Origin: an uncultured Bacillota bacterium
GTDB taxonomy: Bacteria; Bacillota_I; Bacilli_A; RF39; UBA660
NCBI GenBank assembly: GCA_902492995.1
Contig: CABUNR010000002.1
Span: 22,561 to 86,560, forward strand
Direction of reading: 5' to 3'
Length of the DNA stretch: 64,000 nucleotides
A model generated the notes under the pieces. It was not told where the DNA came from, ran no database searches, and worked only from the letters and a program-made list of their open reading frames with translations. The first letter of the stretch is position 1. Each line of letters begins with the position of its first letter. Made by a program: the position numbers and the translations under genes. Positions 32,567-62,077 of this stretch are shown here, piece by piece.

Positions 32567-32568
32567 TG

Positions 32569-32594: not shown

Positions 32595-32635
32595 ATAAAA
32601 CAAAATATTTTACATAGTATTATATAGGTGATAAT

Positions 32636-43168: not shown

Positions 43169-43226
43169 GCAATTAAAAAAAAGTATGCTATAATTGATAA
43201 TGAGAATAAAAGACTAAGGAGGATAT

Positions 43227-46807: not shown

Positions 46808-47209
46808 GTGAAAGAATCGTTTTGGGGAGCAATGATAATATCATTTGGAGTTATAGCAATACTTTTTATATACTTCTTTCAAAATATTACAAATACTGAT
46901 CAACAAAATTATAACTTGCTTAAAGAAACAACAGAAGCAGCAATGTATGATTCAATTGATCAAGTTGAATATCAAAAGAATGGAAATATAAAAATTAATG
47001 CAGAAAAATTTATAGAAAATTTTATAAGAAGATATGCAGAAAATGCAAGCTTATCTAATACATATGTTATTGAAATATATCATATAAGTGAGTACCCTCC
47101 AAAGGTTAGCTTATTAGTTAAATCATCAGAACAAACAACAGCAACAGGAGAAGTAATGGATTTTCAAATAACAAATAGAATAGATGCAATATTAGAAACA
47201 CCATATTAA
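46808..47209 (+). CDS. TadE/pseudopilin-like membrane protein
   Basis: GTG start with RBS aggagg; N-terminal hydrophobic helix then a 100-aa soluble domain; first gene of the Tad-like operon. Confidence 0.35.
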   Translation: MKESFWGAMIISFGVIAILFIYFFQNITNTDQQNYNLLKETTEAAMYDSIDQVEYQKNGNIKINAEKFIENFIRRYAENASLSNTYVIEIYHISEYPPKVSLLVKSSEQTTATGEVMDFQITNRIDAILETPY

Positions 47210-47265
47210 TTTTGAAATTCAAAATTATATATAGATGCGAAATTAAGAAAGAAAGGGAGAAAGAT

Positions 47266-48108
47266 ATGAATAATTTTATGATTTCGTTACAAAAGTTTTT
47301 TAAAAACAAAAACACAGTTACTATAATAGGAGTAGTAGCAATAATATTAATCTTGTTCTTTGGATATCGTTATCAAATAAAGAAACAAGTAAGCCCTGTA
47401 ACTGGTATACCTGTTGCAGCACAAACAATTCAACCAAGAACTAAAATAACAGCAGATATGTTAGAGTATATCGATGTAGCACCTATTGTTTTACAAAAAG
47501 GTGAAGTAATAACAAATAAAAACCTTATAATTGGAAAATATAGTAATTATAATACTATAATTCCAAAGGGAAGTATGTTTTATAACGCTACAGTTATAAA
47601 TGAAGAAGAATTACCAGATTCAGCATTTATTGAAGTTGCTGATGGTGAAGTACCATATAACTTTCCAGTTACAATGGATTCAACATATGGAAATTCAATT
47701 TATCCAGGAAATTATATAGATATTTATATGAAAGCCGAAGGTAAAGATGGAAAATTAATGGTAGGAAAATTACTTGAGAATGTAAAAGTACTAGCAGTTA
47801 AAGATTCCGCAGGAAGACATGTTTTTGAAAATAGTGAAGAATCAAGAACACCAGCATACTTAATTTTTGGAGTAAAACCAGAAATAAATATACTACTTAG
47901 AAAAGCAAGTTATATGGGTAACTACTCAGTTGTTTTATTCCCAGTACCACATGGAGCAACAGTTGATGAAGATGGAACAACAACAGTTACATCAGAAACA
48001 TTAAAGAATTTCATAAATGTTAACACAGTAGCTAATGATGAAATTGAAGATAAAAAAGATACAACAACAAATACAACAACAACTACAAACACAAATAAAC
48101 AAGGATAA
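47266..48108 (+). CDS. CpaB/RcpC-like Flp pilus assembly protein (SAF domain)
   Basis: Start refined to ATG 47266 (RBS aagggag). N-terminal TM, then a SAF-like segment (TKITADMLEYIDVAPIVLQKGEV) and an RcpC-like segment (YPGNYIDIYM...LLENVKVLAVKD); Thr-rich C-terminal tail. Confidence 0.55.
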   Translation: MNNFMISLQKFFKNKNTVTIIGVVAIILILFFGYRYQIKKQVSPVTGIPVAAQTIQPRTKITADMLEYIDVAPIVLQKGEVITNKNLIIGKYSNYNTIIPKGSMFYNATVINEEELPDSAFIEVADGEVPYNFPVTMDSTYGNSIYPGNYIDIYMKAEGKDGKLMVGKLLENVKVLAVKDSAGRHVFENSEESRTPAYLIFGVKPEINILLRKASYMGNYSVVLFPVPHGATVDEDGTTTVTSETLKNFINVNTVANDEIEDKKDTTTNTTTTTNTNKQG

Positions 48109-48114
48109 TAATTA

Positions 48115-49539
48115 ATGAATGATTCAATGTTTTCCCAAATTGATTTTGGGGAACTAAAAAAGTATTTGGATGATGATGATATAACCGATATTTCATATAG
48201 TAATAATGGACAACTATTTGTAAAAACTTTATCAAAAGGTATTTACAGAGTTGAAAATGAAACTGTTAACAATGCATTTATGGAAAAATTAGCATTTCAA
48301 TGTGCTAATGTTATGGGTAAAACATTTAATATGGCTCATCCATTTCTAGATGCTGAAGGAGCAGAGTTACGTTTGAACTTTGTTCACGATTCGATAGCTA
48401 AAAATGGTATAGCTGTATTAATTCGTAAAACTCCAGCTAAGATAAGACTGGAAAAAGACAAATTATTAAAAGAGGATTATATCGAATTAGATATACATGA
48501 TTTTTTAATGAAATGTGTTTGGGGGCATTGTAATATAATTGTGTGTGGAGAAACTGGTTCAGGTAAAACCGAATTTGTTAAATATTTAGCAGCACATACA
48601 AAAGAAGATGAAAAATTAATTACAATAGAGGATACACTTGAATTACATTTGGATCGTATATTCCCACATAGGGATATAGTAGCAATGAAAACAAATAATA
48701 TTGCTTCATATAGCGATGTATTAGTAACTTGTATGAGACAGAATCCTAAATGGATTTTGCTTTCAGAGGTTCGTAGTGCAGAAGCAGTTCTTGCAATAAG
48801 AAACTCCATCTCATCAGGACACTATATTTTATCAACAATACATGCTGATAAAGCATCAAGTATACCTAACCGTATGTATAGTTTGCTTGAAACAAATCAA
48901 GATATTGATCAATTTTTAAAATCTGTTTATAGATATATTCAACTTGGAATATATATTAGAGGGTATCAAGATAAAAGAACAAAAAGATTTCATCGTGAAA
49001 TAGGAGAAGTTACAGAATTTTATGTAACCGAAGATAATAAGGCAGAATATAATACGATTTATAGAAAAACAACGACAGGAAAAATAGTAAGAAAAAATCC
49101 ATCTAAATATCTGATAGATTACTTAGATGCACAAGGAGTTACAATTTCAAAAGATGAAATAAAAGAAGGAGAAACAGACGGACCTAGGAAAAATATAGAA
49201 GATCAACCTTTAGATTCAAATACTTCACAAAATATTCAAAAAGGAAATATTCAAAATAATGTACAAGGTAATATTCCTAATAACATGATTAATAATCAAA
49301 CAAATATTAGACCTAATACAATAATTAATAATCAACAAAATAGACCAAATGTAGGAAGTAATCAAATGCCTGGTATGCCAAATAATATAAATAGTAATCA
49401 GCCAATGTATAATCAAGCAAATTATCAAAATAGACAAGTAATTAATAATTCACAAAATCAAGGTTATAATCAAATAAATTATAATACGAATAGACAAGTT
49501 GTTAATCCATATGGGGTTAACATGAATAATTCAGAATAA
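48115..49539 (+). CDS. CpaF/TadA-type (VirB11 superfamily) secretion ATPase with a 115-aa C-terminal N/Q-rich tail
   Basis: Walker A GETGSGKT, Asp box ITIEDTLEL, Walker B/His box KWILLSEVRSAEA...STIHA. The tail from residue 360 is more than half N plus Q. Confidence 0.85.
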   Translation: MNDSMFSQIDFGELKKYLDDDDITDISYSNNGQLFVKTLSKGIYRVENETVNNAFMEKLAFQCANVMGKTFNMAHPFLDAEGAELRLNFVHDSIAKNGIAVLIRKTPAKIRLEKDKLLKEDYIELDIHDFLMKCVWGHCNIIVCGETGSGKTEFVKYLAAHTKEDEKLITIEDTLELHLDRIFPHRDIVAMKTNNIASYSDVLVTCMRQNPKWILLSEVRSAEAVLAIRNSISSGHYILSTIHADKASSIPNRMYSLLETNQDIDQFLKSVYRYIQLGIYIRGYQDKRTKRFHREIGEVTEFYVTEDNKAEYNTIYRKTTTGKIVRKNPSKYLIDYLDAQGVTISKDEIKEGETDGPRKNIEDQPLDSNTSQNIQKGNIQNNVQGNIPNNMINNQTNIRPNTIINNQQNRPNVGSNQMPGMPNNINSNQPMYNQANYQNRQVINNSQNQGYNQINYNTNRQVVNPYGVNMNNSE

Positions 49540-49552
49540 AGGAGGTAAATTA

Positions 49553-50458
49553 ATGGAATATGTAGTTTTTCTAATTATTGCATTAGTAGCAGTATTTGTT
49601 ATTTCTTATCGAAATAGTAGCGGGGAAAAAGTATATAAATATATTTCAAATAATGCTGGAAATATTTATGAAAAATACTCTCCTTATTCATTTAAAGAAG
49701 TAAGAAGAAAAGTAAAAGAATTAGGACAAGATTATACAAAAAAACAATATTTAATACAAATTACAATATTTGCAGCAGGAGCATCAGTCATTACATATCT
49801 TTACTTTTATAGTTTAATTATTTCGATATTTTATGCAATAGTTGCTATAATGGTAATACCATATCTTCAATATCTTAGATGTAAAAGAATATATAGTGAA
49901 TTTATTTTTGAACAAATACAAGTTTATACAACAAACGTAATAATGGAATTCGCAACTACTCAAGCTTTTGTTAAAGCACTTGAAGGAGTATATGAATCAG
50001 GAGTTTTAGAAGATCCTGTAAGAAGCGATGTAAAATTAATGATTGATATGGCTTATGATAATGGTACAATTGATGAATCTATAAAATTTTTTAATAAAAA
50101 ATATGATTATTACATAGTAAAAAATACTCATCAATTGTTCTTACAAATAACAAATGAAGGTTCTAAAAACTCAAGCGATGCACTTGAAAATATGAGCCAA
50201 GATATAGATATGCTTGTTGAATCAGTGTATAGAGATAGAATAGATAGAGCCAATTTCCATAAAAAGTTTGTAAGATTTGGTATAGTTTTATATCTTATGG
50301 TTATGCTTGTTCAATTCTTATTAAGCCCAGAAAGCTATATTGAATTATTAAATAGTAATTTTACTGTTAAATTATTATTGCATTTAATAATAATAATTAA
50401 TAGTTATTTCTTACTAAATGGAGAAAAATTTTATAATGAGAATGTAGGTGCTGAATAA
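49553..50458 (+). CDS. TadB-like (GspF-domain) pilus assembly membrane protein
   Basis: 301 aa with N-terminal TM, a central pair of TMs and a C-terminal TM; position directly after the ATPase. Confidence 0.45.
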   Translation: MEYVVFLIIALVAVFVISYRNSSGEKVYKYISNNAGNIYEKYSPYSFKEVRRKVKELGQDYTKKQYLIQITIFAAGASVITYLYFYSLIISIFYAIVAIMVIPYLQYLRCKRIYSEFIFEQIQVYTTNVIMEFATTQAFVKALEGVYESGVLEDPVRSDVKLMIDMAYDNGTIDESIKFFNKKYDYYIVKNTHQLFLQITNEGSKNSSDALENMSQDIDMLVESVYRDRIDRANFHKKFVRFGIVLYLMVMLVQFLLSPESYIELLNSNFTVKLLLHLIIIINSYFLLNGEKFYNENVGAE

Positions 50459-51246
50459 TGGAATTTGTAGCAATAGCAGTAATAATGATTTTTGTTCTTA
50501 TCTATACAAATAGAATAGATGCAAAAAGATTTTTAGGTGATGTAGAACCATACTTTAAAATGTTAATGGAAGATGATTATGTATTTTTGCTTAATTTAAG
50601 ATATGGTAGTAAAGATTTAGATGTAACAAAATTATTTAATGCAAGAATAAAAAATGCAGCATTAGTATTTGTAGCAGCAATAATATATTTCTTATTTACA
50701 AATATATCATTTATAAATGTTTTAATTGCTTTTATATTAGCCATTGTAACATTTAAAATGCCTTATACAAAATTACAAAATTATTATAGAGCAAATCTTG
50801 CAAAAATTAATCAAATGTTACCTTATTATTTAAAAAGTTTGGAAATATTAATACAACATTATACAGTTCCAGTAGCACTTGCAAGAAGTATTGAAACAGC
50901 ACCAGATATATTTAAACCAGGATTAAAAAAATTAGTAGAAAAAATTGAAAGCGGTGATTCTAGTATTGATCCTTATATGGATTTTGCAAAAGAATATCCA
51001 GTTAAAGATTCAATGAGAATGATGAGACTTTTATATCGTTTAAGTTTAGGAGCTCAAGAAAACAAACAAGAACAATTAGTAATGTTTGCAAAAAACGTTT
51101 CAACATTACAAAATAAAATGCGTGAAGATAAATATAAAGATCGTCTTGATGCAATGGAAAAGAAAACAATGATGATGTTATTTGCAACAGGTGGTGGAAT
51201 TTTAGCGCTTTTAATGTTTGCAATGATGAATATGATGAGTATTTAA
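50458..51246 (+). CDS. TadC-like (GspF-domain) pilus assembly membrane protein
   Basis: 262 aa with the same topology class; start overlaps the TadB-like stop (taATG), indicating translational coupling. Confidence 0.45.
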   Translation: MEFVAIAVIMIFVLIYTNRIDAKRFLGDVEPYFKMLMEDDYVFLLNLRYGSKDLDVTKLFNARIKNAALVFVAAIIYFLFTNISFINVLIAFILAIVTFKMPYTKLQNYYRANLAKINQMLPYYLKSLEILIQHYTVPVALARSIETAPDIFKPGLKKLVEKIESGDSSIDPYMDFAKEYPVKDSMRMMRLLYRLSLGAQENKQEQLVMFAKNVSTLQNKMREDKYKDRLDAMEKKTMMMLFATGGGILALLMFAMMNMMSI

Positions 51247-51332
51247 CGACTACTTGACAAAAGATATTGATAAAAATACTAAAAAGAGTTATAATAAAAA
51301 TGTATATATATTAAAATAAGGGTGGTGAGATA

Positions 51333-51557
51333 ATGAAAGAAGCAGCAGGAGAAGCAAATATGACAGTAATAACAATTGTTTTAATAGCAGTAGTTTTAGC
51401 AGTTGGTACAGTAATTGTTAATGGTATGATGAGTAATACAAAAAATAGTTCTGCATGTTCTGCCTGTGGTGGTGTATGGAAAGGTGGAAAATGTGTAACA
51501 TCAAGTACAGATAATACCGTTATAGATTATAGTAGCTGTAAAGGTGAAATGAAGTAA
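51333..51557 (+). CDS. Flp/type-IV-pilin-like small protein with Cys-rich C-terminus
   Basis: 74 aa; charged leader MKEAAGEA then a hydrophobic helix NMTVITIVLIAVVLAVGTVIV, followed by a 35-aa tail with 4 Cys. Confidence 0.4.
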   Translation: MKEAAGEANMTVITIVLIAVVLAVGTVIVNGMMSNTKNSSACSACGGVWKGGKCVTSSTDNTVIDYSSCKGEMK

Positions 51558-51572
51558 TATGGAGGTGTCTAA

Positions 51573-51983
51573 ATGAAGCAAGGGATAGGATTTTCGGTTA
51601 CAATCAATATAATTGCTATATTTATAGTGGTTACCTTTGCTTTTTTAGTGACCACTTTAAATTATTATAAAACTTATAAAATTAATAATGCTATAACAAG
51701 CAGTATAGAAAAATATGAAGGTTATAATGATTTAGCCAAAACAGAAATAGAAGAAAAATTAACAAGTTTAGGTTACGTTAATGGAAGTGTTAAATGTAAG
51801 GATAATAATTTAAATAATAGTAAATTTAGTTATTGTATATACGAACTTGATTTAAATCAAAATACAGGAAAATTTAAATATAAAATTGTAACATATCTAA
51901 ATTTTAATATTCCAATTATTAATACAACTTTAAATCTTCCAGTAACAACAACTACAGAACCAATTTATTATTTTAGTGATTAG
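51573..51983 (+). CDS. TadE/pseudopilin-like protein
   Basis: 136 aa; short leader MKQGIG then a hydrophobic helix and a soluble domain with 2 Cys; paralogous architecture to the next ORF. Confidence 0.35.
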   Translation: MKQGIGFSVTINIIAIFIVVTFAFLVTTLNYYKTYKINNAITSSIEKYEGYNDLAKTEIEEKLTSLGYVNGSVKCKDNNLNNSKFSYCIYELDLNQNTGKFKYKIVTYLNFNIPIINTTLNLPVTTTTEPIYYFSD

Positions 51984-51994
51984 GGAGGTAATAT

Positions 51995-52423
51995 ATGAGA
52001 GAAGCTACAGGTAATGCGCTTTTAACTATGATGATGACCTCAATTATTGCTATAATAATGATTTTTTTTGTAGGATCACTTAGTTATTCAAAAGCATACA
52101 GATTGAAAAATTATATTATTAATGAAATAGAAGAAAATAAAACTTGGAATAAAAGTTTAAGCGATAATCTTGACTCTTATTTTAAGGAAGTAGGGTATAG
52201 TGTTAAAAGAAATAATAGTACATGCCCAACTTTAGATAATAATAACTGTGATTCAAGAAATTTGTATGATGGTGGATATGAGGCATGCATATATAGATGC
52301 GGTAATGGAAATAATGAGTATTATAAGGTTATTACATTTATGAAATTTGATTTTCCAGTAATTGGAAGTGCATTAAAATTTAAAGTACAGGGTGAAACAA
52401 AACCTTTTAATGATTTTAATTAA
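51995..52423 (+). CDS. TadE/pseudopilin-like protein
   Basis: 142 aa; MREATGNALLTMMMTSIIAIIMIFFVG leader/helix, soluble domain with 5 Cys. Confidence 0.35.
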   Translation: MREATGNALLTMMMTSIIAIIMIFFVGSLSYSKAYRLKNYIINEIEENKTWNKSLSDNLDSYFKEVGYSVKRNNSTCPTLDNNNCDSRNLYDGGYEACIYRCGNGNNEYYKVITFMKFDFPVIGSALKFKVQGETKPFNDFN

Positions 52424-52440
52424 AAGATTGGGGTGATAGT

Positions 52441-53421
52441 GTGAACGTAATTGTTTCAAATAAAAAACAAAAAATGCTTGAAAATTTAAATATTGAAATA
52501 ATAAAAGAATTAAATGGAGAATTTGATGTTGATGAAATAATTGATACATTTAAAAATTTCTTTTTTCAAAGAATGATATTAGATATAACAGCATTAAAAG
52601 ATTATAAAGATATCAGAACAATACAAAAGTTATCTTTATCTTTAGATATGAATAAAGTGATTTTGATTCTTGATGAAGATTCAAATACAACATCACCTGA
52701 ATTTATGTCTAAATTAATTTCAATTGGAATATATAATTTTACAACAAATATAGAAGGCGTTATGTACTTGTACAATAGTCCAAATACATATAGAGATGTA
52801 GCACACCTACATATTATAGACAACCCAACAGTAGTTACACAAACTGATACAAAAACAAATACTGTTTACGTAGACAGATATGTAGAAGCTCCACCTGTTA
52901 AAACAAATAGAGTAATTGGAATAAAAAATGTTACTAAGCAAACTGGTGCAACAACATTAACTTATATGATGAAAAAAATGCTTAAAAATTTATATTCAGT
53001 TGTTGCGATTGAAGTTGAAAAATCTGACTTTAGATTTTTTAATGATAGAGAACTTTTATCATCAACAAATAGTAGTATAGGAAATATGGTTAGTAAATAT
53101 AAAGATAAAGATGTAATTTTACTTGATGTAAATAATAGCGAAAATGCTTTGGGATTATGCGATGAGGTAATTTATTTAATAGAACCATCAATGGTAAAAT
53201 TAAATAGACTTATGATCATAAATCCAAAAATATTAAATGATATTAAAGGAAAAAAAGTAATATTAAATCAAAGTTTACTAAAACAAAAAGATGTAACTGA
53301 TTTTGAATATGAATCAGGATTGAAAATATTTTATAATATGCCACCTTTAGATGAAAGAGCAGATTATAGCAAAGAATTGGCAGAATTTTTAAATAAATTA
53401 GGTTTTACAAAAGTAAATTAG
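52441..53421 (+). CDS. TadZ/CpaE-like protein with a degenerate ParA/MinD-type nucleotide-binding loop
   Basis: GTG start; N-terminal 130-aa receiver-like domain, then VIGIKNVTKQTGATTLTYMM where a MinD/ParA P-loop (KGGVGKTT) would lie but without the signature Lys-Gly; D-rich segment LLDVNNSE. Confidence 0.4.
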   Translation: MNVIVSNKKQKMLENLNIEIIKELNGEFDVDEIIDTFKNFFFQRMILDITALKDYKDIRTIQKLSLSLDMNKVILILDEDSNTTSPEFMSKLISIGIYNFTTNIEGVMYLYNSPNTYRDVAHLHIIDNPTVVTQTDTKTNTVYVDRYVEAPPVKTNRVIGIKNVTKQTGATTLTYMMKKMLKNLYSVVAIEVEKSDFRFFNDRELLSSTNSSIGNMVSKYKDKDVILLDVNNSENALGLCDEVIYLIEPSMVKLNRLMIINPKILNDIKGKKVILNQSLLKQKDVTDFEYESGLKIFYNMPPLDERADYSKELAEFLNKLGFTKVN

Positions 53422-53442: not shown

Positions 53443-53471
53443 TTGACAAAAATATAAAAATAACGTATGAT
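53443..53471 (+). promoter_or_regulatory. Candidate sigma-A promoter (TTGACA, 17 bp spacer, TATGAT) followed by perfect palindrome AGATGTgaaACATCT at 53481..53495
   Basis: Consensus -35 with ideal spacing, immediately upstream of the first T4SS-module gene. The palindrome lies about 10 nt after the -10 element. Confidence 0.55.
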
Positions 53472-53519
53472 TAAATTGTTAGATGTGAAACATCTATTAA
53501 ACTATGAGGAGGGTTAAAT

Positions 53520-53882
53520 ATGATGAATATGGTAAACGTATTAGCTAACGTAAAATGTGGAACAATTGAAATAGATAGTATAATACCTGGAACAATTTCT
53601 ACATTTGTTACAATCTTAAAAATTGCAGTACCTTTAATTTTAATCGTTTTAGGAATGCTTGATTTAGCAAAAGCTGTAATGGCAAATGAAGAAAAAGAAA
53701 TGAAAGAAGCACAAAAGAAACTTATAAAAAGAATCATTTATGCAGTTGTTATTTTCTTCGTAGTAGCATTAGTACAATTTGTATTCTCACAATTATCTAA
53801 AGCCGATACTAATAATGCCAATGGTACATCAAATGCAACAGCTTGTATTTCATGTTTCATTAATGGAAATTGTGGTAGATAG
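53520..53882 (+). CDS. VirB2/TrbC-like conjugative pilin candidate
   Basis: 120 aa; two hydrophobic helices separated by a charged loop (LDLAKAVMANEEKEMKEAQKKLIKR). The pattern is nearly identical to the C-terminus of the next ORF; Cys-rich tail CISCFINGNCGR. Confidence 0.5.
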   Translation: MMNMVNVLANVKCGTIEIDSIIPGTISTFVTILKIAVPLILIVLGMLDLAKAVMANEEKEMKEAQKKLIKRIIYAVVIFFVVALVQFVFSQLSKADTNNANGTSNATACISCFINGNCGR

Positions 53883-53906
53883 TAAAAATACATTTAATAA
53901 AACAAT

Positions 53907-53936
53907 AAGAAAAATCTTTTCTATTGTTTTTTTTTA
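53907..53936 (+). terminator. Rho-independent terminator/attenuator
   Basis: agaaaa-atc-ttttct followed by a T-run; an extended -10 (tgttataat) follows at about 53934..53945. Confidence 0.45.
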
Positions 53937-53964
53937 TGTTATAATGTATTTGGTATAGTTTAAA

Positions 53965-55236
53965 ATGAGGTGTATTATGAAAAGACATTTAAATATAAAT
54001 AAATTTTTAATGGTAGGAGTAGCACTCTTTTGCCTATTTTTTACAGTGAATAATGTAGAAGCAAAAGAATTTATTTGTTATTATAGAGATCCAATGTATG
54101 ATAATGCGGCGAAATGGAAAATAAGCAGTCCATATATCAAAGTACATTATAAAAATGGCAAAGCTACAGTTCAATGGTATGATCATAGCACCAATAGCGA
54201 ATTAGGAAATAAACTTTATTACGCAGTAAATGATGCTTATGAAGAAATATCACCAAAAAGTGGTTCTCAATTGGCTGATAGCGATTTTTCTAATGGATGT
54301 CCGTCTAAAATCGATAGAATGACATTGCCTGGATATGATAATGGAAATGTTATTTTTGATGTATTTAAAAAAGGTACTGAAGAGTATAATTTATTTTATG
54401 ACCAAACATTATATGAAACAGGAAACAAATATAGTAAAGAATTAAAAAGTATATATAATAGTGGTAGCATGAAAACAAAAAAATGTTATCAAAGTGGTTT
54501 AAATTTTGATCCTTCTAATGAGTATTCACAAGCACATTTTTGCTGGAAACCAACATTTGTTCAAGAAGATGCGGTGTCAAATGGAACAACAAATGGTGGA
54601 ACATCAAATAATACAAATAAGGAATATATTACATGTCCTTATGCTAGTGATGGGCATGTTTCAACTGATGCTGGAAATGTAAAACCATATCTTATAATTA
54701 AATATAATAAAAGTACAAAAAAGACAGAGGCTACAAGTGAACTTGCAAATACTTCTGCAACAATAAATGTTCATATTGATTTTTCAAAATTGAATGGTAA
54801 ATGTCCGAATACTGTATATACCGATGCAAATTATGAAAATATATATTCAAATATATCAGAAGTTCCTGATAAAGGAGATGCACATATGTTTGGATTAATA
54901 AAAAAAGTAAGTTCAACTAAGAAACCTACTGATACAGGAAAAACTGGATGTGATTTAATCGGAGATAGAACACTTGGAATTGTAAAAAAATTATATGCGT
55001 TAATAAGATTTTTAGTTCCTGCAATAATAATTGTTTTATCAGTTCTAGATTTTACAGGTATTGTATTGTCAGGTGAAACAGAAAAAATGGAAAAAGCAAA
55101 AAAAAGATTCGTAATAAGAATTGTAAGTGGAATGCTTGTTCTATTTGTACCAGCTATACTAGAGATGTTATTAAGACTAGCTGGTATAATTGAATCAAAT
55201 GAGGATTTAGTTAATGCTGCGTGTAATCTTTTTTAA
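53965..55236 (+). CDS. Secreted protein carrying a C-terminal VirB2/TrbC-like pilin domain
   Basis: Signal peptide, 330-aa Cys-containing extracytoplasmic domain, then LIRFLVPAIIIVLSVLDFTGIVLSGETEKMEKAKKRFVIRIVSGMLVLFVPAILEML. This parallels residues 30-95 of ORF 53520..53882 (LKIAVPLILIVLGMLDLAKAVMANEEKEMKEAQKKLIKRIIYAVVIFFV). Confidence 0.5.
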   Translation: MRCIMKRHLNINKFLMVGVALFCLFFTVNNVEAKEFICYYRDPMYDNAAKWKISSPYIKVHYKNGKATVQWYDHSTNSELGNKLYYAVNDAYEEISPKSGSQLADSDFSNGCPSKIDRMTLPGYDNGNVIFDVFKKGTEEYNLFYDQTLYETGNKYSKELKSIYNSGSMKTKKCYQSGLNFDPSNEYSQAHFCWKPTFVQEDAVSNGTTNGGTSNNTNKEYITCPYASDGHVSTDAGNVKPYLIIKYNKSTKKTEATSELANTSATINVHIDFSKLNGKCPNTVYTDANYENIYSNISEVPDKGDAHMFGLIKKVSSTKKPTDTGKTGCDLIGDRTLGIVKKLYALIRFLVPAIIIVLSVLDFTGIVLSGETEKMEKAKKRFVIRIVSGMLVLFVPAILEMLLRLAGIIESNEDLVNAACNLF

Positions 55237-55253
55237 GGATGGAGGTGATATAA

Positions 55254-57662
55254 TTGGGTAATTTGATTTATTTTTTAGATGATAAAAATTCGTTCAAAAG
55301 TACTATACGAGCTTTTTTTGCCCAAATATTAAAATTTTTATATAGATGGATAAGCTCTGCAATAGAAGCAATGTATAATTTAGCTTCTAATGATTTTGGA
55401 CTTGGAAGTTATGTTGAAAATTTATCAGGAAAAATATTTGTTGTACTTATAATATTTATGATATTTAAAGTAACTATTTCAATAATGACATATGTAGTTA
55501 ATCCAGACGCTTTTACTGATAAAAGCAAGGGAATTCAAAATGTTTTTAAAAGAATAGTTATTTCAATTGTATTATTAGTGTCAATAAATCCAATATTTTC
55601 AGCTTTATCATATATTCAAGATGCCATAATTGAAGACGGAGTTATTGAAAATTTAATTATGGGGAGTAATAATGATACAGTTCATGAAACAAGTGACGGT
55701 GAATATGTTTATTTGATACAAATAAGCCCATATTGTGAAACGTGGGCACCAAATAATAAGGTAGTTGCATTTTCAAAAGGAGACATGATTTCTCTATTAA
55801 CCTTAAAACCATTTATACAACCATCTACTTCAACAACAGGAGCTGATTCAAGAAAAGATGAATTGCTGGATTTAGAATATTGTGGTGTTGATGTTAGTAA
55901 GGATATTGACTATATTGATAGTACAGAAATGGGCTTTTATCAAAGTATATCTGGTCCTAAAAGTACAGATGACTTTTTGAGATGGGAAATTTATAATGGA
56001 TATACTGGTACATGGTCTATTGAAAATAATGTTTATTATTTAGATTTTGACTATTTATGGGCACTTGTATTTGGAATAGTAGTGTTATTAATAGTGATAA
56101 GTTTCTGTTTTGACGTTGTAAAACGTGCATTAACATTATTAGTTTTACAAGTTATGGCACCAATTCCTATAATATCCTATATAAGCCCTGATAGTAAATC
56201 ATCAAATATGTTAAATTCATGGTTTAAAAAATTAGGTTCAACATGGGCAAGTTTATTCATAAAAATGTTATCATTAAGTCTTGCAATAAGTTTTATTGGA
56301 GCAATATCAGACTCTGCAATTATAAAAGATGGTAGTGGAGGACTTATTATACAATTAATTGCAATCGCAGGTACGTTAATGTTTGCAAAAGAATTACCTA
56401 AGTTATTAGAAGAGTTAATTCCAGGGTTAAAAATGGGTAATGGCTTCGAATTAAATCCATTTAAAAAAATAAGTAAAGAAGCATTAGGAGGAAATATGTT
56501 ACTTGGAGCAGGTGCTGGAATATTAGGAGCAGGGCTTGCTGGTGGAACTAATGCTATACATAGACTTGGAAGTGGAATATCTCAAGGTGTGAATAATGCA
56601 AGAAATGTAAGTGGCTTTAGAAATAAAGCAGGAGCAATTTTAAATAGCTCTTTAAGAGGTGCTGCAAGAGGTGTTGGAAGCGGATTAACAGGAGCAGCAC
56701 GAGCAGGAATTAATGCTTTTGGAAGAACATCAAAAGATGGTCGAATATTTAATGGTGCTTGGAATGGATACCAGACATCAATGTATTCTAAATTATTAAG
56801 AGAAGATAATTTAAGAAAAGCTGGATTAGAAAATGCATCACTAGGTGATAAAATGAAGTTTGCAGCTGGATCAGTACTTGCTGATGGAGCCAGATATGTT
56901 GGTGTTCTTAATAAAGGACAAAGTGAATATTTAGATGCTGCACGAATGGATAATCAGATTAAATCAATGGAATCTAAATTAAGTGAAGACAAATTGAATT
57001 TAACAATTGAAAAGCAAAATGCTTTAGCTCCATTCCAGGAATATGCAAAATATGCTCAAAAAATAAAAGAAAAGATAGATAATGAATCAAATGTTAAAAC
57101 AGCTCAACAACTTTTAGAGGATGCACAAGCAACTGGTAATGCATCAGATATTGCTGCTGCAAGAAATATATTAGAAGAAGCAAAAAAAACAGCTGGTCAA
57201 AAATTACTAAGTACAGATAGAGAAACTAGAGCATATGCTAGTAAGTTACAAGAAATAAGAAATAACAATAGTATATTAAAGGATAATAATTACGACTTCA
57301 TAGATGATAAAGGATTCTTTAAAGCAAGTTCAATTTATAATGCTAATTCTCAAGCTAATATTACTGAAATGAGTTATGCATCTAGAGAAAAAGAATTTGA
57401 AATTAGGCAACAACAAATTGATTCTATCAAAAATAGTAAAGAATATATGGAAGCACATGATGAAAATTCAAGAGCTAAATTACAAAACTCTAGTCGTATA
57501 AATAGAGATGTTCAACAACCTGGATATAAACCAAGTGCTGGTCCAGCTCAAGAAACTGCATTTGATCGATATGTAGGTGGACATCCTGGAGGACATAATT
57601 CTGATCATGGACCAGGTAGGCAATTTCTACCACCAGATAATGGTGGAAATCCTAGACCATAA
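55254..57662 (+). CDS. VirB6/TrbL-like polytopic conjugation channel protein with long C-terminal coiled-coil/Gly-rich region
   Basis: 802 aa; 6 or more TM helices in the first 420 aa, a Gly-rich segment (GGNMLLGAGAGILGAGLAGG), then a 350-aa hydrophilic tail ending Pro/Gly-rich. The architecture resembles ConG/TrbL-type proteins of Firmicutes ICEs. Confidence 0.55.
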   Translation: MGNLIYFLDDKNSFKSTIRAFFAQILKFLYRWISSAIEAMYNLASNDFGLGSYVENLSGKIFVVLIIFMIFKVTISIMTYVVNPDAFTDKSKGIQNVFKRIVISIVLLVSINPIFSALSYIQDAIIEDGVIENLIMGSNNDTVHETSDGEYVYLIQISPYCETWAPNNKVVAFSKGDMISLLTLKPFIQPSTSTTGADSRKDELLDLEYCGVDVSKDIDYIDSTEMGFYQSISGPKSTDDFLRWEIYNGYTGTWSIENNVYYLDFDYLWALVFGIVVLLIVISFCFDVVKRALTLLVLQVMAPIPIISYISPDSKSSNMLNSWFKKLGSTWASLFIKMLSLSLAISFIGAISDSAIIKDGSGGLIIQLIAIAGTLMFAKELPKLLEELIPGLKMGNGFELNPFKKISKEALGGNMLLGAGAGILGAGLAGGTNAIHRLGSGISQGVNNARNVSGFRNKAGAILNSSLRGAARGVGSGLTGAARAGINAFGRTSKDGRIFNGAWNGYQTSMYSKLLREDNLRKAGLENASLGDKMKFAAGSVLADGARYVGVLNKGQSEYLDAARMDNQIKSMESKLSEDKLNLTIEKQNALAPFQEYAKYAQKIKEKIDNESNVKTAQQLLEDAQATGNASDIAAARNILEEAKKTAGQKLLSTDRETRAYASKLQEIRNNNSILKDNNYDFIDDKGFFKASSIYNANSQANITEMSYASREKEFEIRQQQIDSIKNSKEYMEAHDENSRAKLQNSSRINRDVQQPGYKPSAGPAQETAFDRYVGGHPGGHNSDHGPGRQFLPPDNGGNPRP

Positions 57663-57686
57663 AAAATAAAAAGTGGGTGAATAAAA

Positions 57687-58013
57687 ATGAATAATAATTA
57701 TTTAATACCGGCCAATTCAAAAAAATCACAATTATATTTTGGATTATTTAATAAATTTGATTTAATATTATTTGGTAGTGGAGTAGGAACATCATTATTA
57801 TTAATGACAATAATTCCTGTTGGAAATTATATTCTTTCAATAATAATATGTTTACCTGCTGTAATAACTGGGTTTCTAGTATTCCCCGTTCCAAACTACC
57901 ATAATGTTTTATCTTTATTAAGGTCGATATGGCAATTTTATACAACAAGACAAAAATTCATTTGGAAAGGTTGGTGTGTAAAAGATGAGTTCAAAGAAGA
58001 CGATAAAAAGTAG
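57687..58013 (+). CDS. Small two-TM protein in VirB3/PrgI/TcpE-like position
   Basis: 108 aa with two hydrophobic helices, immediately upstream of VirB4. Confidence 0.4.
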   Translation: MNNNYLIPANSKKSQLYFGLFNKFDLILFGSGVGTSLLLMTIIPVGNYILSIIICLPAVITGFLVFPVPNYHNVLSLLRSIWQFYTTRQKFIWKGWCVKDEFKEDDKK

Positions 58014-58536
58014 ATATACAGAACAATATGTACCTATAAAAAGTATTACAAATGGTATGATTGTGCTTGAAAATAATGAAAAAGTAACAGGTCTTAAAAT
58101 TGTACCCAGAAATATATTTATTTCTGATACTAATACGCAATATGCAATAATTGATAATTTAAAAAATGTATATAACGTTATAGATTATGAATTCTGGGTA
58201 ATTGCTGCTGATAGACCAGTTGATGTAAATGTATTTTTATCACAACTTCAATTATTGTATGCAAAAACAAATGATCAAGTAACAAGAAAGCTAATAATGG
58301 AAGATATAGAAAAAGCAAATACATTTACAAATAACAATGTTGTAGATACAGAATACTTCTTATTATTTAGACATAAAGATCCAGAAGTAATAAATAAAAG
58401 ATTGAGACAATTAATAACAATGTTTGCTAATGCGGGATTAAATTCACATCAAGTAACTAATGATGATTTAAGAATTATCTTAGATAATTTCCTAAATGGT
58501 GGACAAACAACTAATTTTGGAGGTGTTTTTGTATGA
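57985..58536 (+). CDS. VirB4-family N-terminal domain encoded as a separate ORF
   Basis: 183 aa; its stop overlaps the start of the ATPase ORF (gtATGAatc). The two ORFs total 777 aa, matching VirB4/ConE/TcpF length. Confidence 0.5.
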   Translation: MSSKKTIKSRYTEQYVPIKSITNGMIVLENNEKVTGLKIVPRNIFISDTNTQYAIIDNLKNVYNVIDYEFWVIAADRPVDVNVFLSQLQLLYAKTNDQVTRKLIMEDIEKANTFTNNNVVDTEYFLLFRHKDPEVINKRLRQLITMFANAGLNSHQVTNDDLRIILDNFLNGGQTTNFGGVFV

Positions 58537-60317
58537 ATCTAAAAGCACAATTAGCACCTAAGGGCTTAGAATTTAAACCAAATGGCTTTATTATAAGCGA
58601 TAAATATGCAACAATATTAACAGTTATTTCTTATCCAAGAATGATAACACCAGGATATTTATCAAATTTAACAAGTATGTCAGGAATTAAAGTTGTTATA
58701 AAACATATTCCTGTAGATTTCTCAGTACTTAGAAAAATGTTAAATAAGGAAGTTGCAACATTAAAAGAAAGATATCAAAATGAAAAGGATATAACAATTC
58801 AAGAAAGAATAAGACAAGATTATGAATCATTAGAAGTATTCATAACACAACTTGCAGCATCACAGGCAAAAATCTTTGATTTTCAAATGCATATTATGAT
58901 AACAGCAAATTCAGAGGAAGAATTAAACAATAAAAAAATGCAAGTAAGAAACTATCTTGAAGCAATGCAATTAAGAGCATATCCATTACGCTTTGAACAA
59001 GAAAATGTCTTTAAATCAATGCTTCCAATATATGAAGATCAAGAAATTGAAAGTAGAATCGGAATACCAATTCCATCTCCAACAATTGCAGCTATGTATC
59101 CTTTTATATTTGATAGTATAAAAGATCCTGGCCTATCAACATTGTTAGGTGTAGATTTCTCAGGTGGAGTAATTTTATTTAATCAATTCTTATATAAAAT
59201 AAAAAAAGAACATAATAGAAATAATGCAAACTTAATTATTCTTGGTACATCAGGAAGTGGTAAGTCAACAGCAGAAAAAATTATGTTTAGAACACATATA
59301 AGAAATGGCTGTCAATTAATTGCAATAGATCCTGAAGGTGAATTAGAAGGAATGACAAGAAGATATAAAGGAGACTTTATAGATCTTGGTAAAGGTGGAG
59401 AATTTGGAATGATTAATCCACTAGAAGTTGTAATAGATGCGGATGAAGATGAAGTAAAAGGTGGACTTGGATATACAGTGCTTACTAGAACTCTTCAAAG
59501 TATAAAAGCATTTATGAAGTATTATGATCCTTCAATCACAGAAGATATATTAAATATGTTTACAGAAATTGTTACAGAAACATATAGAAGATTTGGAATG
59601 AATTTTGAAACAGATTTTACAAAATTTAAATCAATCGATTATCCAACATTTAAAGATGTATATGCAACAATAAGAGGAAGACTTGCATCAATGACTGAAA
59701 AAACACATGAAAAAGATGTAATGGAAATGCTTGAAATGAAAGTAAGACCACTTGTTAAAGAATTAAAATATTATTTTGATGGACATACAACAATAGAACC
59801 AAAAAGTAAATTTATAGTATTTAATATTAGAGAACTTATGAATGCTGATGCTAATATAAGAAATGCACTTTTCTTTAACATTCTTAAATATGCATGGGGA
59901 CTTACTTTAGATAAAAGAATAGATACTGTATTATCTGTAGATGAAGCACATGTATTATTATCTGGTAATAATACACTTGGGGCTGATTTCTTAGCACAAA
60001 TTCAAAGACGTGCTAGAAAATATAATACGGGTACAATTATAATAACTCAACAACCAAGTGATTTTAGCGATCCAAATGTTATAACACAAGGAAAAGCTAT
60101 ATTTGATAATGCATCATATTATTTGGTTATGGGATTAAAAAAACAAGCAGTTGAAGACTTAGCAAAATTAATAGATTTAAATGATAATGAAAAAGAAAAT
60201 ATTAAACATTATAATCAAGGAGAAGCATTATTTGTTTGTGGAAGTAGAAGAATGCAAATAGAAGTAATCGCAACTGAACAAGAATTAGATTCATTTGGAT
60301 CAGGTGGTGGATTATAA
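58533..60317 (+). CDS. VirB4/TraE/ConE-type conjugative transfer ATPase (C-terminal ATPase portion)
   Basis: Walker A LGTSGSGKST, IAIDPEGE, and Walker B/DEAH region VLSVDEAHVLL ... IITQQPSDF, characteristic of the VirB4 family. Confidence 0.85.
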   Translation: MNLKAQLAPKGLEFKPNGFIISDKYATILTVISYPRMITPGYLSNLTSMSGIKVVIKHIPVDFSVLRKMLNKEVATLKERYQNEKDITIQERIRQDYESLEVFITQLAASQAKIFDFQMHIMITANSEEELNNKKMQVRNYLEAMQLRAYPLRFEQENVFKSMLPIYEDQEIESRIGIPIPSPTIAAMYPFIFDSIKDPGLSTLLGVDFSGGVILFNQFLYKIKKEHNRNNANLIILGTSGSGKSTAEKIMFRTHIRNGCQLIAIDPEGELEGMTRRYKGDFIDLGKGGEFGMINPLEVVIDADEDEVKGGLGYTVLTRTLQSIKAFMKYYDPSITEDILNMFTEIVTETYRRFGMNFETDFTKFKSIDYPTFKDVYATIRGRLASMTEKTHEKDVMEMLEMKVRPLVKELKYYFDGHTTIEPKSKFIVFNIRELMNADANIRNALFFNILKYAWGLTLDKRIDTVLSVDEAHVLLSGNNTLGADFLAQIQRRARKYNTGTIIITQQPSDFSDPNVITQGKAIFDNASYYLVMGLKKQAVEDLAKLIDLNDNEKENIKHYNQGEALFVCGSRRMQIEVIATEQELDSFGSGGGL

Positions 60318-60337: not shown

Positions 60338-62068
60338 TTGGATAATAAAGATTTTGATGATGAAATAGATGAATTAGAAGATGAAACTCCTTCATATGAA
60401 GAAATGCCTGAAGAAGAAATAGAAAGTGAAAATCAAGATTTTTATACACAAAATATTAATAATCAAATAAGAAATATTAGAAGAGAAAATAAAGGAAGCC
60501 AAAATACCGTTAATAGACTTAGACAAAGAAATGCGAATACAATTGTAAAAAAAGCAACAATACCAAATCAAAATACTGATGAAGGAGAGCAACCAGAACA
60601 AAAACAAAATAAATTAGATAAATTAAATCCATTAAAACAAAATGGAGGATTATCTAATATTGGAAATAATTTTAAACAAAAAGGTAAAGAACTTGGTACT
60701 GCAGCAAAAGAAAAAACAAAAGAAGTTATAGCTAGTGGTGTAAAAAAATTATCTGCTTTTTTACTTAAAAATCCATATGTACTTATAATAATTGGAATTA
60801 TCATATTAATTATAGTTATTCCAGTTTTATGGAAAGCAAATGGTGACGAGGATGATAGCAGTGGCAATTTAGATAATTCTGAAATAATAAGTAATTCAGA
60901 TAGCATGATTTCACTTAAAAGGACAAAATTATCGAGGCAAGAATTTGTTGATGCATGTAATAATTATTCAAATGGTTCAAAACACAAAGCTTTTTATGAT
61001 AAATGTGGTAGAATATATGATATATCTAAAGAGAATAATTTTAACCCTGAAATGGTTGTAATTAGAGCAATAGTAGAAGGATTTTCACCAGGGGAATATA
61101 AAAATAATTACTGGGGTATTGGATGTTTTAATGGAGCAGGTTCAAGTGCCTGTAAAACATATGGCTCATTTGATGAAGGTGTAAAAGCATATATTAAAAA
61201 TGTTTCACAATATGAAACAGTAGAACAAATGGCTAGTAAATATGCATATATAGGTGATAACTGGTATAATCCAGGTAGTTCAGCAAGTGGAGGATGTTAT
61301 TATTTTCCTTATATAAAACAGTATATGAGTTCTGCGAGAATAATTACAGTTCAAAATGCATGTAGTGAAAGTAAAAAATGTTCAGGTACAATCTGTATTC
61401 CAACAAATGATGAAGATCAAATGGCATATGCTAAGTATCAAGTATCAAAAATGGTTGATGTAGGAAATAGTGTCTTTGGAAGTGTAACAAGTCAAGAAGC
61501 AACATCTAAAGCATCATCCTCAAAAATGCCAACCTCTGTTGAAGATTTAAAAATTAGATATTATTTTACATTTGATAAGGAAAAATATTTGAAATTAGAA
61601 GGAGCAGATAGTCATTTATTTGGACAATGTGTATGGTATGCATATCATAGAGCGATGGATATAGTAAATTCTTCAAATCTAAGTTCAGAAGAGAAACAAA
61701 AGAGAATTGAAAGTTTACAATCACATTCATCAGACGGAGGTGCATATGTAACTGCTATGGAGGGCTCAATATTTAAAAAGACTACAAATCCAAATGATAT
61801 AAAAGCACCAGCTGTTATATCTTGGAAAAATGGTTCATATGGACATGTTGCAATAATAGAAGAAGTACAAACAGACTCAAATGGTAATAAAACTTTTGTT
61901 GTATCAGAAGGATGGAGAAATAGAGATTGTCCGAATAGAAGCTGGTGTACACATAATTCAATAGAATCATTATGGGCTGTTACTAGATTTAATTCTTATA
62001 CAACTTCTTCAGTAAATACTTATAGTAGTGGTTATACCTTTGTAAATGCAGCTTCATTATTAGAATAG
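60338..62068 (+). CDS. CwlT/TcpG-like bifunctional cell-wall hydrolase (lysozyme-like domain plus C-terminal CHAP domain) with acidic N-terminus and TM anchor
   Basis: N-terminal 130 aa D/E-rich, TM YVLIIIGIILIIVIPVLW, central glycoside-hydrolase-like region, then C-terminal CHAP signature GQCVWYAYHRAM ... GHVAIIEEV (catalytic Cys/His). Confidence 0.65.
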   Translation: MDNKDFDDEIDELEDETPSYEEMPEEEIESENQDFYTQNINNQIRNIRRENKGSQNTVNRLRQRNANTIVKKATIPNQNTDEGEQPEQKQNKLDKLNPLKQNGGLSNIGNNFKQKGKELGTAAKEKTKEVIASGVKKLSAFLLKNPYVLIIIGIIILIIVIPVLWKANGDEDDSSGNLDNSEIISNSDSMISLKRTKLSRQEFVDACNNYSNGSKHKAFYDKCGRIYDISKENNFNPEMVVIRAIVEGFSPGEYKNNYWGIGCFNGAGSSACKTYGSFDEGVKAYIKNVSQYETVEQMASKYAYIGDNWYNPGSSASGGCYYFPYIKQYMSSARIITVQNACSESKKCSGTICIPTNDEDQMAYAKYQVSKMVDVGNSVFGSVTSQEATSKASSSKMPTSVEDLKIRYYFTFDKEKYLKLEGADSHLFGQCVWYAYHRAMDIVNSSNLSSEEKQKRIESLQSHSSDGGAYVTAMEGSIFKKTTNPNDIKAPAVISWKNGSYGHVAIIEEVQTDSNGNKTFVVSEGWRNRDCPNRSWCTHNSIESLWAVTRFNSYTTSSVNTYSSGYTFVNAASLLE

Positions 62069-62077
62069 AGTGATATA

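Follow-up and report, generated by a model that had tools for sequence, protein, structure and literature searches.

Paralogous two-helix hairpin proteins, one fused to a strain-variable, predicted exported domain, at a chromosomal type IV secretion system locus of an uncultured Bacillota bacterium

This report concerns two adjacent genes in a 64,000-nucleotide stretch of DNA (the window, part of contig CABUNR010000002.1) from an uncultured Bacillota bacterium. Both are on the plus strand, as open reading frames (ORFs) at 53520-53882 (120 amino acids, aa) and 53965-55236 (a 423-aa ORF). In agreement with the type IV secretion system (T4SS) setting proposed in an earlier note on this DNA, the pair lies directly upstream of VirB6-like, VirB3-like and VirB4 genes. 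The note had read the small protein as a VirB2/TrbC-like pilin and the large one as the same fold joined to a secreted domain. The features of the pair and of its immediate surroundings are as follows (TM, transmembrane; HMM, hidden Markov model).

53443..53471, plus strand: match to a sigma-70-like promoter, TTGACA-17-TATGAT, 11/12, 5' of the small gene (consensus match)
53506-53513, plus strand: putative ribosome-binding site GAGGAGGG, GGAGG-type, of the small gene (sequence match)
53520..53882, plus strand: small pilin-like hairpin protein, 120 aa (BLASTP, HMM, hydropathy, AlphaFold2)
53890..53939, plus strand: AT-rich stem-loop with a trailing U-run, in the gap between the hairpin genes (folding against shuffles)
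53977..54063, plus strand: predicted Sec-type signal peptide MKRHLNINKFLMVGVALFCLFFTVNNVEA of the large protein, predicted cleavage after VEA (homologue conservation, hydropathy)
54064..54963, plus strand: predicted exported, Cys-framed hydrophilic ectodomain, about 300 aa (homologue alignment)
54964..55236, plus strand: C-terminal hairpin of the large protein, consisting of TM1, loop SGETEKMEKAKKRF, TM2 and tail, paralogous to the small protein

The two proteins have in common a hairpin of about 75 residues, in which a highly conserved K/E-rich loop joins two TM helices. This likeness, which the earlier note had described as a shared pattern of helix, charged loop and helix, was borne out by alignment: residues 24-86 of the small protein match residues 338-400 of the large protein without gaps (30% identity, 65% positives, E=3e-11 in a single BLASTP comparison). 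Because two-helix membrane segments cross-match readily, we made an independent test with an HMM built from the last 100 residues of 67 large-family (fusion) proteins, with no small proteins included, and run against the 264 window ORFs of at least 50 aa. This hairpin HMM found the 120-aa protein with E=8.5e-23 (74 bits), and the next-best window ORF had E=0.21. The window encodes many other polytopic membrane proteins, and as none of them scores better than this, the match is not an artefact of hydrophobic composition. Judged by sequence, the 120-aa protein and the C-terminus of the large protein are true paralogues, and we consider this relationship solid.

Two TM helices per protein, as anticipated in the earlier note, were found both by a hydropathy scan, which shows two hydrophobic segments separated by the short K/E-rich loop, and in AlphaFold2 models, where the helices span residues 21-55 and 58-97 of the small protein and 334-369 and 372-406 of the large one. 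The model of the small protein is a helical hairpin with a confidence score (pLDDT) of 69. Invariant residues cluster around the loop, at S369-R385 in the large family and N56-R71 in the small family. Among 48 homologues of the small protein, N56, M61, K62, A64, Q65 and R71 of the loop NEEKEMKEAQKKLIKR are invariant, and nearly all of the loop SGETEKMEKAKKRF is invariant among close relatives of the large protein. Cysteines on either side of the hairpin are conserved as well. Both paralogues have a conserved Cys 23-25 residues ahead of the conserved TM1 proline and a second one 35-38 residues past the conserved arginine that follows the loop. The Cys-containing tails reported earlier are a family trait: C109, C112 and C118 are invariant in the 48 small homologues, and C420 is kept in at least 90% of 66 fusion homologues. 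The N-tail cysteine of the small protein, C13, is likewise kept in at least 90% of its homologues.

For both paralogues, the loop is predicted to be cytoplasmic and both ends of the hairpin to be outside, because of the positive-inside rule, the signal peptide of the large protein and the existence of relatives with an ectodomain on either side. Among 51 long relatives, the hairpin is C-terminal in 44 and N-terminal or in the middle in 7. In one relative (P0190, 554 aa) it is central, with repeated Cys-framed modules both before and after it, and this layout supports the outside location of both hairpin ends.

Translation of the large gene almost certainly begins with the ATG at 53977 and yields a protein of 419 aa, because GAGGTG is found at 53967-53972 and all homologues begin with MKKH or MKRH. 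The alanine at position -1 of the predicted signal peptide cleavage site (A33) is invariant in the 66 homologues, and the signal-peptide stretch is still 98% identical between strains. The ectodomain that follows keeps a framework of C38-x-Y40, C112-P113, C224-x-Y226, C280(-P) and C329 (423-aa ORF numbering). It has no Pfam, NCBIfam or PDB match, and its AlphaFold2 model, made from 10 sequences, is unreliable (pLDDT 47); the secondary structure in this low-confidence model is beta-rich from the start of the domain. An HMM of the ectodomain alone recognizes proteins of two distant metagenome loci (L009 with 8e-17 and the 429-aa protein of L010 with 1.4e-5) and matches no other window ORF. The ectodomain is therefore a separate domain that accompanies the hairpin. 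We also considered whether it arose by tandem duplication of a "C-x-Y ... C-P" unit, which is unproven: hhalign aligns only a 13-residue CP motif, with a probability of 38%. Given the signal peptide, the Cys-containing ectodomain and the C-terminal hairpin, the ectodomain should be displayed outside the cell. The fused secreted domain proposed earlier thus stands in kind; its size had been put at 330 aa, and the corrected figures are about 300 aa and a gene start at 53977.

The small protein has an N-tail of about 20 residues, TM1 at about 21-57, the loop, TM2 at about 66-95 and a 25-residue tail; a homologue at 70% identity carries the label "Bacilli bacterium." The promoter match ahead of its gene is suggestive and no more, as promoter-like sites are not more numerous in this region than shuffling would predict. 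The stem-loop between the two genes has a folding free energy of -11.5 kcal/mol (z=-2.7; 2 of 200 shuffles fold equally well) and may act as a partial terminator that favours expression of the small subunit. Together, the promoter match, the ribosome-binding site and the stem-loop fit an abundant subunit, as consensus matches only.

The pair is embedded in a larger set of plus-strand genes.

46808..53421, plus strand: Tad-like type IV filament cluster, directly 5' of the hairpin genes and syntenic across the lineage
55254..57662, plus strand: extended VirB6/TrbL-like protein, 802 aa (PF19597 TrbL_4, 31.9 bits; MMCAP2_0566 family)
57687..58013, plus strand: VirB3-like protein, 108 aa (weak TcpE/PrgI matches, PF12648 with E=0.0023 and PF12666 with E=0.053; position and synteny)
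57985-58536, plus strand: TrsD-like N-terminal piece of a split VirB4, 183 aa (NF045975 positions 96-276)
58533-60317, plus strand: VirB4 ATPase, 594 aa (NF045975 VirB4_plasma positions 294-890, 346.8 bits; PF26593 TraC-like)
60338..62746, plus strand: CHAP-domain cell-wall hydrolase (576 aa) and lipoprotein with a C-terminal TM segment (222 aa) (Pfam)
62840..64000, plus strand: VirD4-type coupling protein, which runs off the window and has 744 aa in related contigs

The VirB6-like protein has about six TM segments, an acidic loop of 138 aa (residues 122-259, with two Cys) that is predicted to be extracellular, and a Cys-free hydrophilic tail of 421 aa. Its N-terminus looked by eye like a third copy of the hairpin, a candidate that we rejected, as the hairpin HMM gives no match there at E ≤ 10. 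The VirB3-like, TrsD-like and VirB4 genes overlap and jointly tile a single 894-aa VirB4 model from a Mycoplasma integrative and conjugative element (ICE), which suggests either that the VirB3-TrsD-VirB4 unit was split here or that it was fused in Mycoplasma. No VirB8-like protein was recognized in the window by Pfam or NCBIfam.

The Tad-like cluster encodes DUF5411, RcpC/CpaB and a CpaF-type ATPase (PF00437 T2SSE), two pseudopilin-like proteins, a 326-aa protein and a Flp-like pilin of 74 aa with four Cys (51333-51557); two polytopic proteins without a family match occupy the TadB/TadC positions and presumably take those roles. Further upstream are two giant secreted, extremely Cys-rich paralogues of 1180 and 971 aa (38874-42416 and 43879-46794), which resemble each other at both termini and are matched by no Pfam or NCBIfam model, and between them (42502-43865) two paralogous signal-peptide proteins of about 211 aa with a C-terminal TM anchor. 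All four look like surface proteins of the same island. Housekeeping genes flank the locus on the left (LigA, PFL, an NAD-salvage operon and dacB-spmA-spmB) and on the right (rhodanese, DedA, RmuC and Lon). The left-hand block at 25304-34804 comprises NAD-salvage genes (isochorismatase/PncA-like, NAPRTase, PRPP-synthetase-like, NadD-like and NrtR), followed by the dacB-spmA-spmB-like operon (32636-34804).

No relaxase, integrase or Rep family was found with Pfam and NCBIfam in the ORFs scanned from 34.9 kb to VirD4, a set that leaves out the short 43227-43865 paralogue; a relaxase could be present in unrecognized form or be encoded elsewhere. There is no tRNA at the locus borders: the tRNAs are 30 kb off (a five-tRNA cluster at 7946-8369). 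The locus is a lineage-conserved chromosomal supercluster and not an obvious ICE. Membership in a conjugative Firmicutes ICE, as framed in the earlier note, or in a conjugative plasmid is doubtful, given the chromosomal setting, the housekeeping flanks, the lack of a detected relaxase or integrase and conservation on contigs of up to 820 kb. The window has about 24% G+C, and all genes of the hairpin/T4SS region are on the plus strand. Indeed, nearly all sizeable window ORFs are, and GC skew and AT skew are positive over almost the whole 64 kb; both are consistent with a long leading-strand stretch. By gene content (dacB-spmA-spmB, SpoIID and PFL), the host is apparently a cell-walled, low-GC, spore-forming Bacillota bacterium.

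How widespread are such proteins? Searched exhaustively with an HMM, 1.84 billion cluster representatives yielded 4,644 members of the fusion family at E ≤ 1e-3, 1,393 at E ≤ 1e-10 and 49 at E ≤ 1e-30. Nearly all of the best 150 matches (145) are longer than 200 aa, and most align over near full length, with the hairpin at the C-terminus. A word-indexed protein database gave just 9 relatives, and a profile search of it with 66 sequences gave only 12 proteins. No Pfam or NCBIfam model covers the fusion-family ectodomain, and the literature searched contained no description of the family. By these sequence matches, the fusion is a large unannotated family, not a one-off. A scan of a genome collection returned a single metagenome-assembled genome ("uncultured Firmicutes"), and scans of a viral collection and a first metagenome set returned no match. 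Plasmids gave no match by blastn; the best annotated VirB4 relatives are on B. thuringiensis pBMB67-type plasmids (29% identity), where the small protein 5' of TrbL is not matched by the hairpin HMM.

We then surveyed 80 metagenome loci that bear a homologue of the small hairpin protein, on contigs that reach 820 kb. The number of hairpin genes per locus ranges from one to eight, with two in 33 loci and at least three in 21. Where at least 2 kb of downstream sequence was available, at least two hairpin genes were present in 46 of 58 loci and a hairpin protein of at least 200 aa in 35 of 58. VirB4 was found in 29 of the 35 loci with at least 7 kb downstream, and CpaF in 27 of the 29 with at least 6 kb upstream. 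The most extended arrays precede the VirB6-like gene: seven tandem hairpin genes in locus L010 (5477-12145; 131, 536, 429, 170, 277, 301 and 256 aa) and eight, of widely differing size, in locus L083 (319-7780). A different setting was seen in L009, where a 148-aa small hairpin protein and a fusion member, with genes at 4846-5292 (minus strand) and 10001-11140 (plus strand), are found amid Mur ligase, MraY, DnaE, Gmk and DinB. Median identity to the window proteins is 81% for VirB4, 76% for CpaF, 71% for the TrsD-like protein, 54% for the VirB3-like protein, 53% for VirD4 and 29% for the VirB6-like protein, which makes the last the fastest-evolving T4SS component.

Comparison with close relatives revealed a block that differs sharply between strains. 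Four human-gut metagenome contigs (L001-L004) are syntenic with the window, and their flanking proteins are all 95-100% identical to those of the window. Two proteins break this pattern: the fusion protein, at about 36% in tblastn, and the VirB6-like protein, whose first half is about 43% identical. The corresponding block is as follows.

54085..57667, plus strand: cassette of 3.6 kb that includes the mature fusion protein and the whole VirB6/TrbL-like gene (DNA comparison with L002)

Window and L002 DNA are 98.2% identical as far as 54084, a point 21 nt beyond signal-peptide cleavage, then identity collapses and returns to 98.5% from 57668, 6 nt after the VirB6-like stop codon; within the cassette, only two patches are alignable, at about 67%. 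The L004 allele breaks at 54066, and the C-terminal tail of its VirB6-like protein remains 60-98% identical to that of the window, so the cassette is mosaic. Among seven alleles, the ectodomains are 22-33% identical, a saturated level, the hairpins 48-64% and the VirB6-like N-terminal regions 38-68%. We looked for a shufflon, an inversion or a diversity-generating retroelement as the source of this variability and found no meaningful repeats flanking or inside the cassette; the alleles are too divergent for such a retroelement. For these reasons, the simplest explanation is that recombination within the conserved flanks replaced the block. A second swapped module follows downstream, between flanks that are 99% identical (window 60338-62746, L004 16321-19553): where the window encodes the CHAP hydrolase and the 222-aa lipoprotein, L004 has a SpoIID plus M23-peptidase protein (831 aa) and a 241-aa protein instead.

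The reading that we favour, with moderate confidence, is that the two proteins are paralogous pilin-like subunits of a monoderm (MPF-FATA-like) T4SS, the large one of which displays a strain-variable contact domain. The exported domain and the VirB6-like protein would probably form the surface-contact part of the machine. The small protein would be the abundant subunit, and VirB4 would use its conserved cytoplasmic loop to pull it out of the membrane, as has been proposed for the VirB2 pilin in Agrobacterium. The invariant cytoplasmic loop is a likely ATPase handle by analogy with this VirB4-dependent extraction and with pIP501 TraB, whose cytoplasmic loop is its best-conserved part. Once extracted, the small subunit would assemble on the VirB6-like platform and make up the bulk of a distal channel or short stalk, and the large paralogue would join the same assembly through its hairpin as a minor subunit, so placing its variable ectodomain at the cell-distal face. 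There, the ectodomain and the variable acidic extracellular loop of the VirB6-like protein would contact the target cell, a VirB5-like role. A disulfide between the paired external cysteines may staple the hairpin, as a functional analogue of T-pilin cyclisation; from the conserved cysteine positions, such stapling is a reasonable inference. Given the chromosomal location and the failure to find a relaxase, the system may function in cell-cell interaction or in transfer other than classical conjugation of an ICE, as in Patescibacteria.

Several results weigh against this reading, and the first set concerns family membership. The VirB2/TrbC assignment was retained as far as the two-TM hairpin topology and the position in a T4SS operon go, and it failed at the level of sequence: PF04956 (TrbC/VirB2), the profile that the earlier note had put forward for checking, matched neither window protein at E ≤ 1 and, at E ≤ 0.01, none of 114 family members (48 small, 66 fusion). 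In hhalign, the profile of the small family against mature A. tumefaciens VirB2 (a query that is 100% identical to sequences in Ti/Ri plasmids) reached a probability of 0.1%, equal to that of an unrelated control. The only pilin-type Pfam match of the window pair is to PF18895, "T4SS_pilin." Both matches span nearly the full 71-position model, and their scores of 21.0 bits (small) and 25.8 bits (large) are below the gathering cut-off of 26.6. In the small family, PF18895 is matched at E ≤ 0.01 by 34 of 48 members, and the eukaryotic receptor family 7tm_1 equally by 34 of 48. PF16943 (CagC/TraB) matched neither the window pair nor their homologues, and Foldseek against the PDB returned generic TM hairpins only, all at E>3, with no pilin among them. 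Sequence-profile searches of the PDB with both families likewise gave nothing meaningful. The 7tm_1 likeness is also an annotation trap: the small-hairpin family matches this model (TM5-ICL3-TM6) as often and as strongly as PF18895, and some of its database entries already bear a precomputed PF00001 label.

On the other side of the ledger, 42 of 66 fusion-family members match PF18895 over the full model, versus 2 of 66 for 7tm_1, and two database proteins (P0001, 99% identical, and P0008) carry precomputed PF18895 matches. At the sequence level, then, the PF18895 match is specific for the fusion family and not for the small family. Because the paralogy is robust and the match of the fusion family is specific, both proteins are placed near PF18895: their hairpin is not canonical TrbC/VirB2, as judged from profiles, and is at the edge of PF18895. 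Other models added little. The NCBIfam model NF045849 (Mbov_0395 pilin-like) matched the small protein with 15.4 bits (E=0.011; curated cut-off 40 bits) and left the fusion protein unmatched. The pRE25 TraB protein, used as a stand-in for pIP501 TraB, scored 58 bits with PF16943 and matched PF04956 weakly; against it, the small-family profile had an hhalign probability of 0.5%. No VirB5 family was among the Pfam matches of the fusion protein at E ≤ 1, where PF18895 was the sole match.

The remaining points against concern the mechanism itself. The small protein has no evident cleavable signal peptide, and export of its N-tail is thus assumed. An adhesin role for the ectodomain is purely conjectural, as its structural model is too poor for fold comparison, and the same locus encodes a Tad-like pilus able to do adhesion alone. 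The 15.8-kb L009 locus that was retrieved contains no T4SS gene, so some hairpin-family members may be detached from machine genes. Finally, the C-terminal half of the VirB6-like protein recombined separately in L004, and across the seven alleles the distances of the ectodomain and the VirB6-like protein are uncorrelated (rho 0.24, p=0.30; rho -0.20, p=0.48); functional coupling between them therefore rests only on the shared replaced block.

A static channel is the strongest competitor, though we consider it unlikely. Here, both hairpins would be translocon subunits like pIP501 TraB, with no filament, and the ectodomain would be a wall-spanning scaffold that replaces VirB8/VirB9/VirB10-type parts, its variability driven not by target recognition but by the pressure that phages, host antibodies or competitors put on any exposed protein. 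TraB sets the example: it is an essential protein of the same topology that is recovered together with mating-pair-formation proteins in the absence of a pilus (PMC9083827). The failure to recognize a VirB8-like protein fits this explanation, as do the adjoining Tad-like pilus, which could supply adhesion, and the absence of structural or sequence likeness to solved pilins. However, arrays of up to eight divergent hairpin genes and a separately promoted small paralogue better fit a polymer of major and minor subunits, the hairpin family is not detectably related to TraB/CagC, and the low-confidence ectodomain model is beta-rich from its start rather than showing the helices-then-sheet order of NTF2-like VirB8.

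The pilin-like reading can also be taken further. In its bolder form, which we regard as quite unlikely, a vertically inherited chromosomal T4SS/Tad supercluster would build a VirB2-like filament or stalk from a disulfide-stapled PF18895 subunit, with minor pilins that bear interchangeable ectodomains. Were this so, the cassette of fusion protein and VirB6-like protein would set strain-specific partner recognition, and classical Gram-positive bacteria, in the form of cell-walled, low-GC Bacillota of gut and rumen, would have their first pilin-based T4SS. The system could then plausibly be a sister to the essential T4SS of Patescibacteria or the source from which it evolved, with cell-cell interaction favoured over ICE conjugation.

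An improbable alternative is exclusion or self-recognition, in which, by analogy with YddJ-ConG of ICEBs1 and Eex-TraG of SXT, the ectodomain in a carrier cell recognizes the cognate VirB6-like loop of an incoming cell and blocks transfer; the fusion and VirB6-like genes would then need joint replacement. The mature fusion protein and the N-terminal membrane/loop part of the VirB6-like protein do occupy one replaced block, with three alleles on a near-identical backbone, and no other T4SS component diverges nearly as much as the VirB6-like protein. VirB6 homologues are also known targets of exclusion proteins, with specificity in an extracellular loop (bioRxiv 10.1101/2021.01.25.428195). Yet known exclusion proteins are small lipoproteins or inner-membrane proteins and not paralogues of machine subunits, and the invariant hairpin loop argues for a role within the machine rather than for a mere anchor. 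Many loci, moreover, have several hairpin proteins, and correlated divergence was not detected.

That an ICE here makes a true conjugative pilus of the VirB2/TrbC type, tipped by the fusion protein as adhesin, seems to us very improbable. In its favour, the pair agrees with VirB2 in topology and in gene position. Conjugative pilins expose both of their termini at the surface, as in the F-pilus and T-pilus structures, and an N-terminal ectodomain behind a predicted signal peptide would sit on the outer surface of a VirB2-type filament. PF18895 is moreover named T4SS pilin and serves as a VirB2 proxy in the cited sections on Patescibacteria (PMC12102498). Against this are the negative PF04956 and VirB2 hhalign tests, the lack of a detected relaxase or integrase, the housekeeping genes on both sides, conservation across the lineage on large chromosomal contigs, and the plasmid and viral collections without a match. 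A pilus with a tip adhesin may exist, and any pilus here would be unprecedented, because the cited review sections deny VirB2 and VirB5 to Gram-positive T4SSs other than those of Patescibacteria (PMC12857230). Lastly, the small family matches G-protein-coupled receptor models as well as PF18895, a sign that TM-loop-TM profiles cross-match easily, but the chance that two unrelated two-helix membrane proteins resemble each other by composition is negligible: it is refuted, at the sequence level, by the independent hairpin HMM, which no other TM protein of the window approaches, and the two proteins have the loop motif and the spacing of the flanking Cys to the conserved Pro and Arg in common.

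The locus bears on how Gram-positive T4SSs cross the wall and contact a partner cell. In the pilin-like reading that we favour, PF18895-type pilin-like genes, often arrayed, would be standard T4SS parts in ordinary cell-walled Bacillota, and the exported domain and the VirB6-like platform would form a strain-variable face of the machine. The two are thus concrete candidates, exchangeable between strains, for what sets the specificity of a monoderm T4SS. The fusion family is also sizeable, with thousands of cluster representatives and an ectodomain that has no domain model.

Among known systems, the exclusion pairs YddJ-ConG of ICEBs1 and Eex-TraG of SXT/R391 target VirB6 homologues, with specificity in an extracellular loop (bioRxiv 10.1101/2021.01.25.428195). 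There, a VirB6 homologue that varies in an extracellular region and a partner that varies as well define specificity groups among closely related elements, and the window locus would resemble them in both variable parts. Its putative partner differs in being paralogous to a machine subunit, in its much larger size and in the position of its gene, 5' of the VirB6-like gene, and no co-divergence was detected.

Another counterpart is the VirB2/VirB5/VirB6 arrangement of Gram-negative systems. In the R388/Agrobacterium model, as given in the cited sections of one review, VirB5 is a minor exported component on VirB6 at the distal end (PMC12857230). Similarities include the VirB3, VirB4 and VirB6 neighbours, the hairpin topology and the proposed distal exported minor component. 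The differences are that the exported domain here is covalently fused to the hairpin, that the loop is long and highly charged and that there is no outer membrane.

A counterpart in topology is pIP501 TraB, which in its mature form is a two-TM hairpin with both ends outside and a cytoplasmic loop that is its best-conserved part; it is essential, binds VirB6-, VirB8- and VirB1-like partners and co-purifies with mating-pair-formation proteins, with no pilus (PMC9083827). Like TraB/CagC, the window hairpins have two TM segments, the same predicted topology and the loop as the best-conserved part. In contrast, TraB has a cleavable signal peptide and no ectodomain fusion, paralogue array or external Cys pair, and the window pair is a different sequence family from TraB/CagC (PF16943).

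Models from Mycoplasma ICEs supply the best NCBIfam matches of the window VirB4 (346.8 bits), TrsD-like and VirB6-like proteins, all below the curated cut-offs; the small protein weakly matches the Mycoplasma "pilin-like" and MMCAP2_0566 models. The corresponding Mycoplasma components are Mbov_0395 (pilin-like), Mbov_0396/MMCAP2_0566 (TrbL-like) and Mbov_0397 (VirB4). Unlike those elements, the window has the standard genetic code with long ORFs, a walled host, and VirB3, TrsD and VirB4 as three genes versus one.

A close parallel is the T4SS of Patescibacteria (Southlakia epibionticum, TM7x), which the cited sections of two reviews present as the sole exception to the rule that Gram-positive T4SSs lack VirB2 and VirB5 (PMC12857230, PMC12102498). 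According to these sections, its VirB2-like pilins were called with PF18895 and PF04956 (PMC12102498), and the system is monoderm and MPF-FATA-related, with a core of PrgI/VirB3, TrsD, VirB4 and VirB6; it is chromosomal, usually has no relaxase, includes 2-11 tandem divergent pilin-like genes, and is associated with and dependent on type IV pili (PMC12102498, PMC12857230). The window lineage is similar in having 1-8 hairpin genes per locus, a TrsD-like piece of a split VirB4, a Tad-like cluster and no relaxase found. It differs in that the host is a peptidoglycan-bearing, low-GC Bacillota bacterium, that VirD4 and a cell-wall hydrolase are present, and that many array members bear an ectodomain of about 230-500 aa, a feature not described in the cited sections on Patescibacteria. 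With these likenesses and differences, the locus offers a tractable comparison point for the Patescibacteria T4SS.

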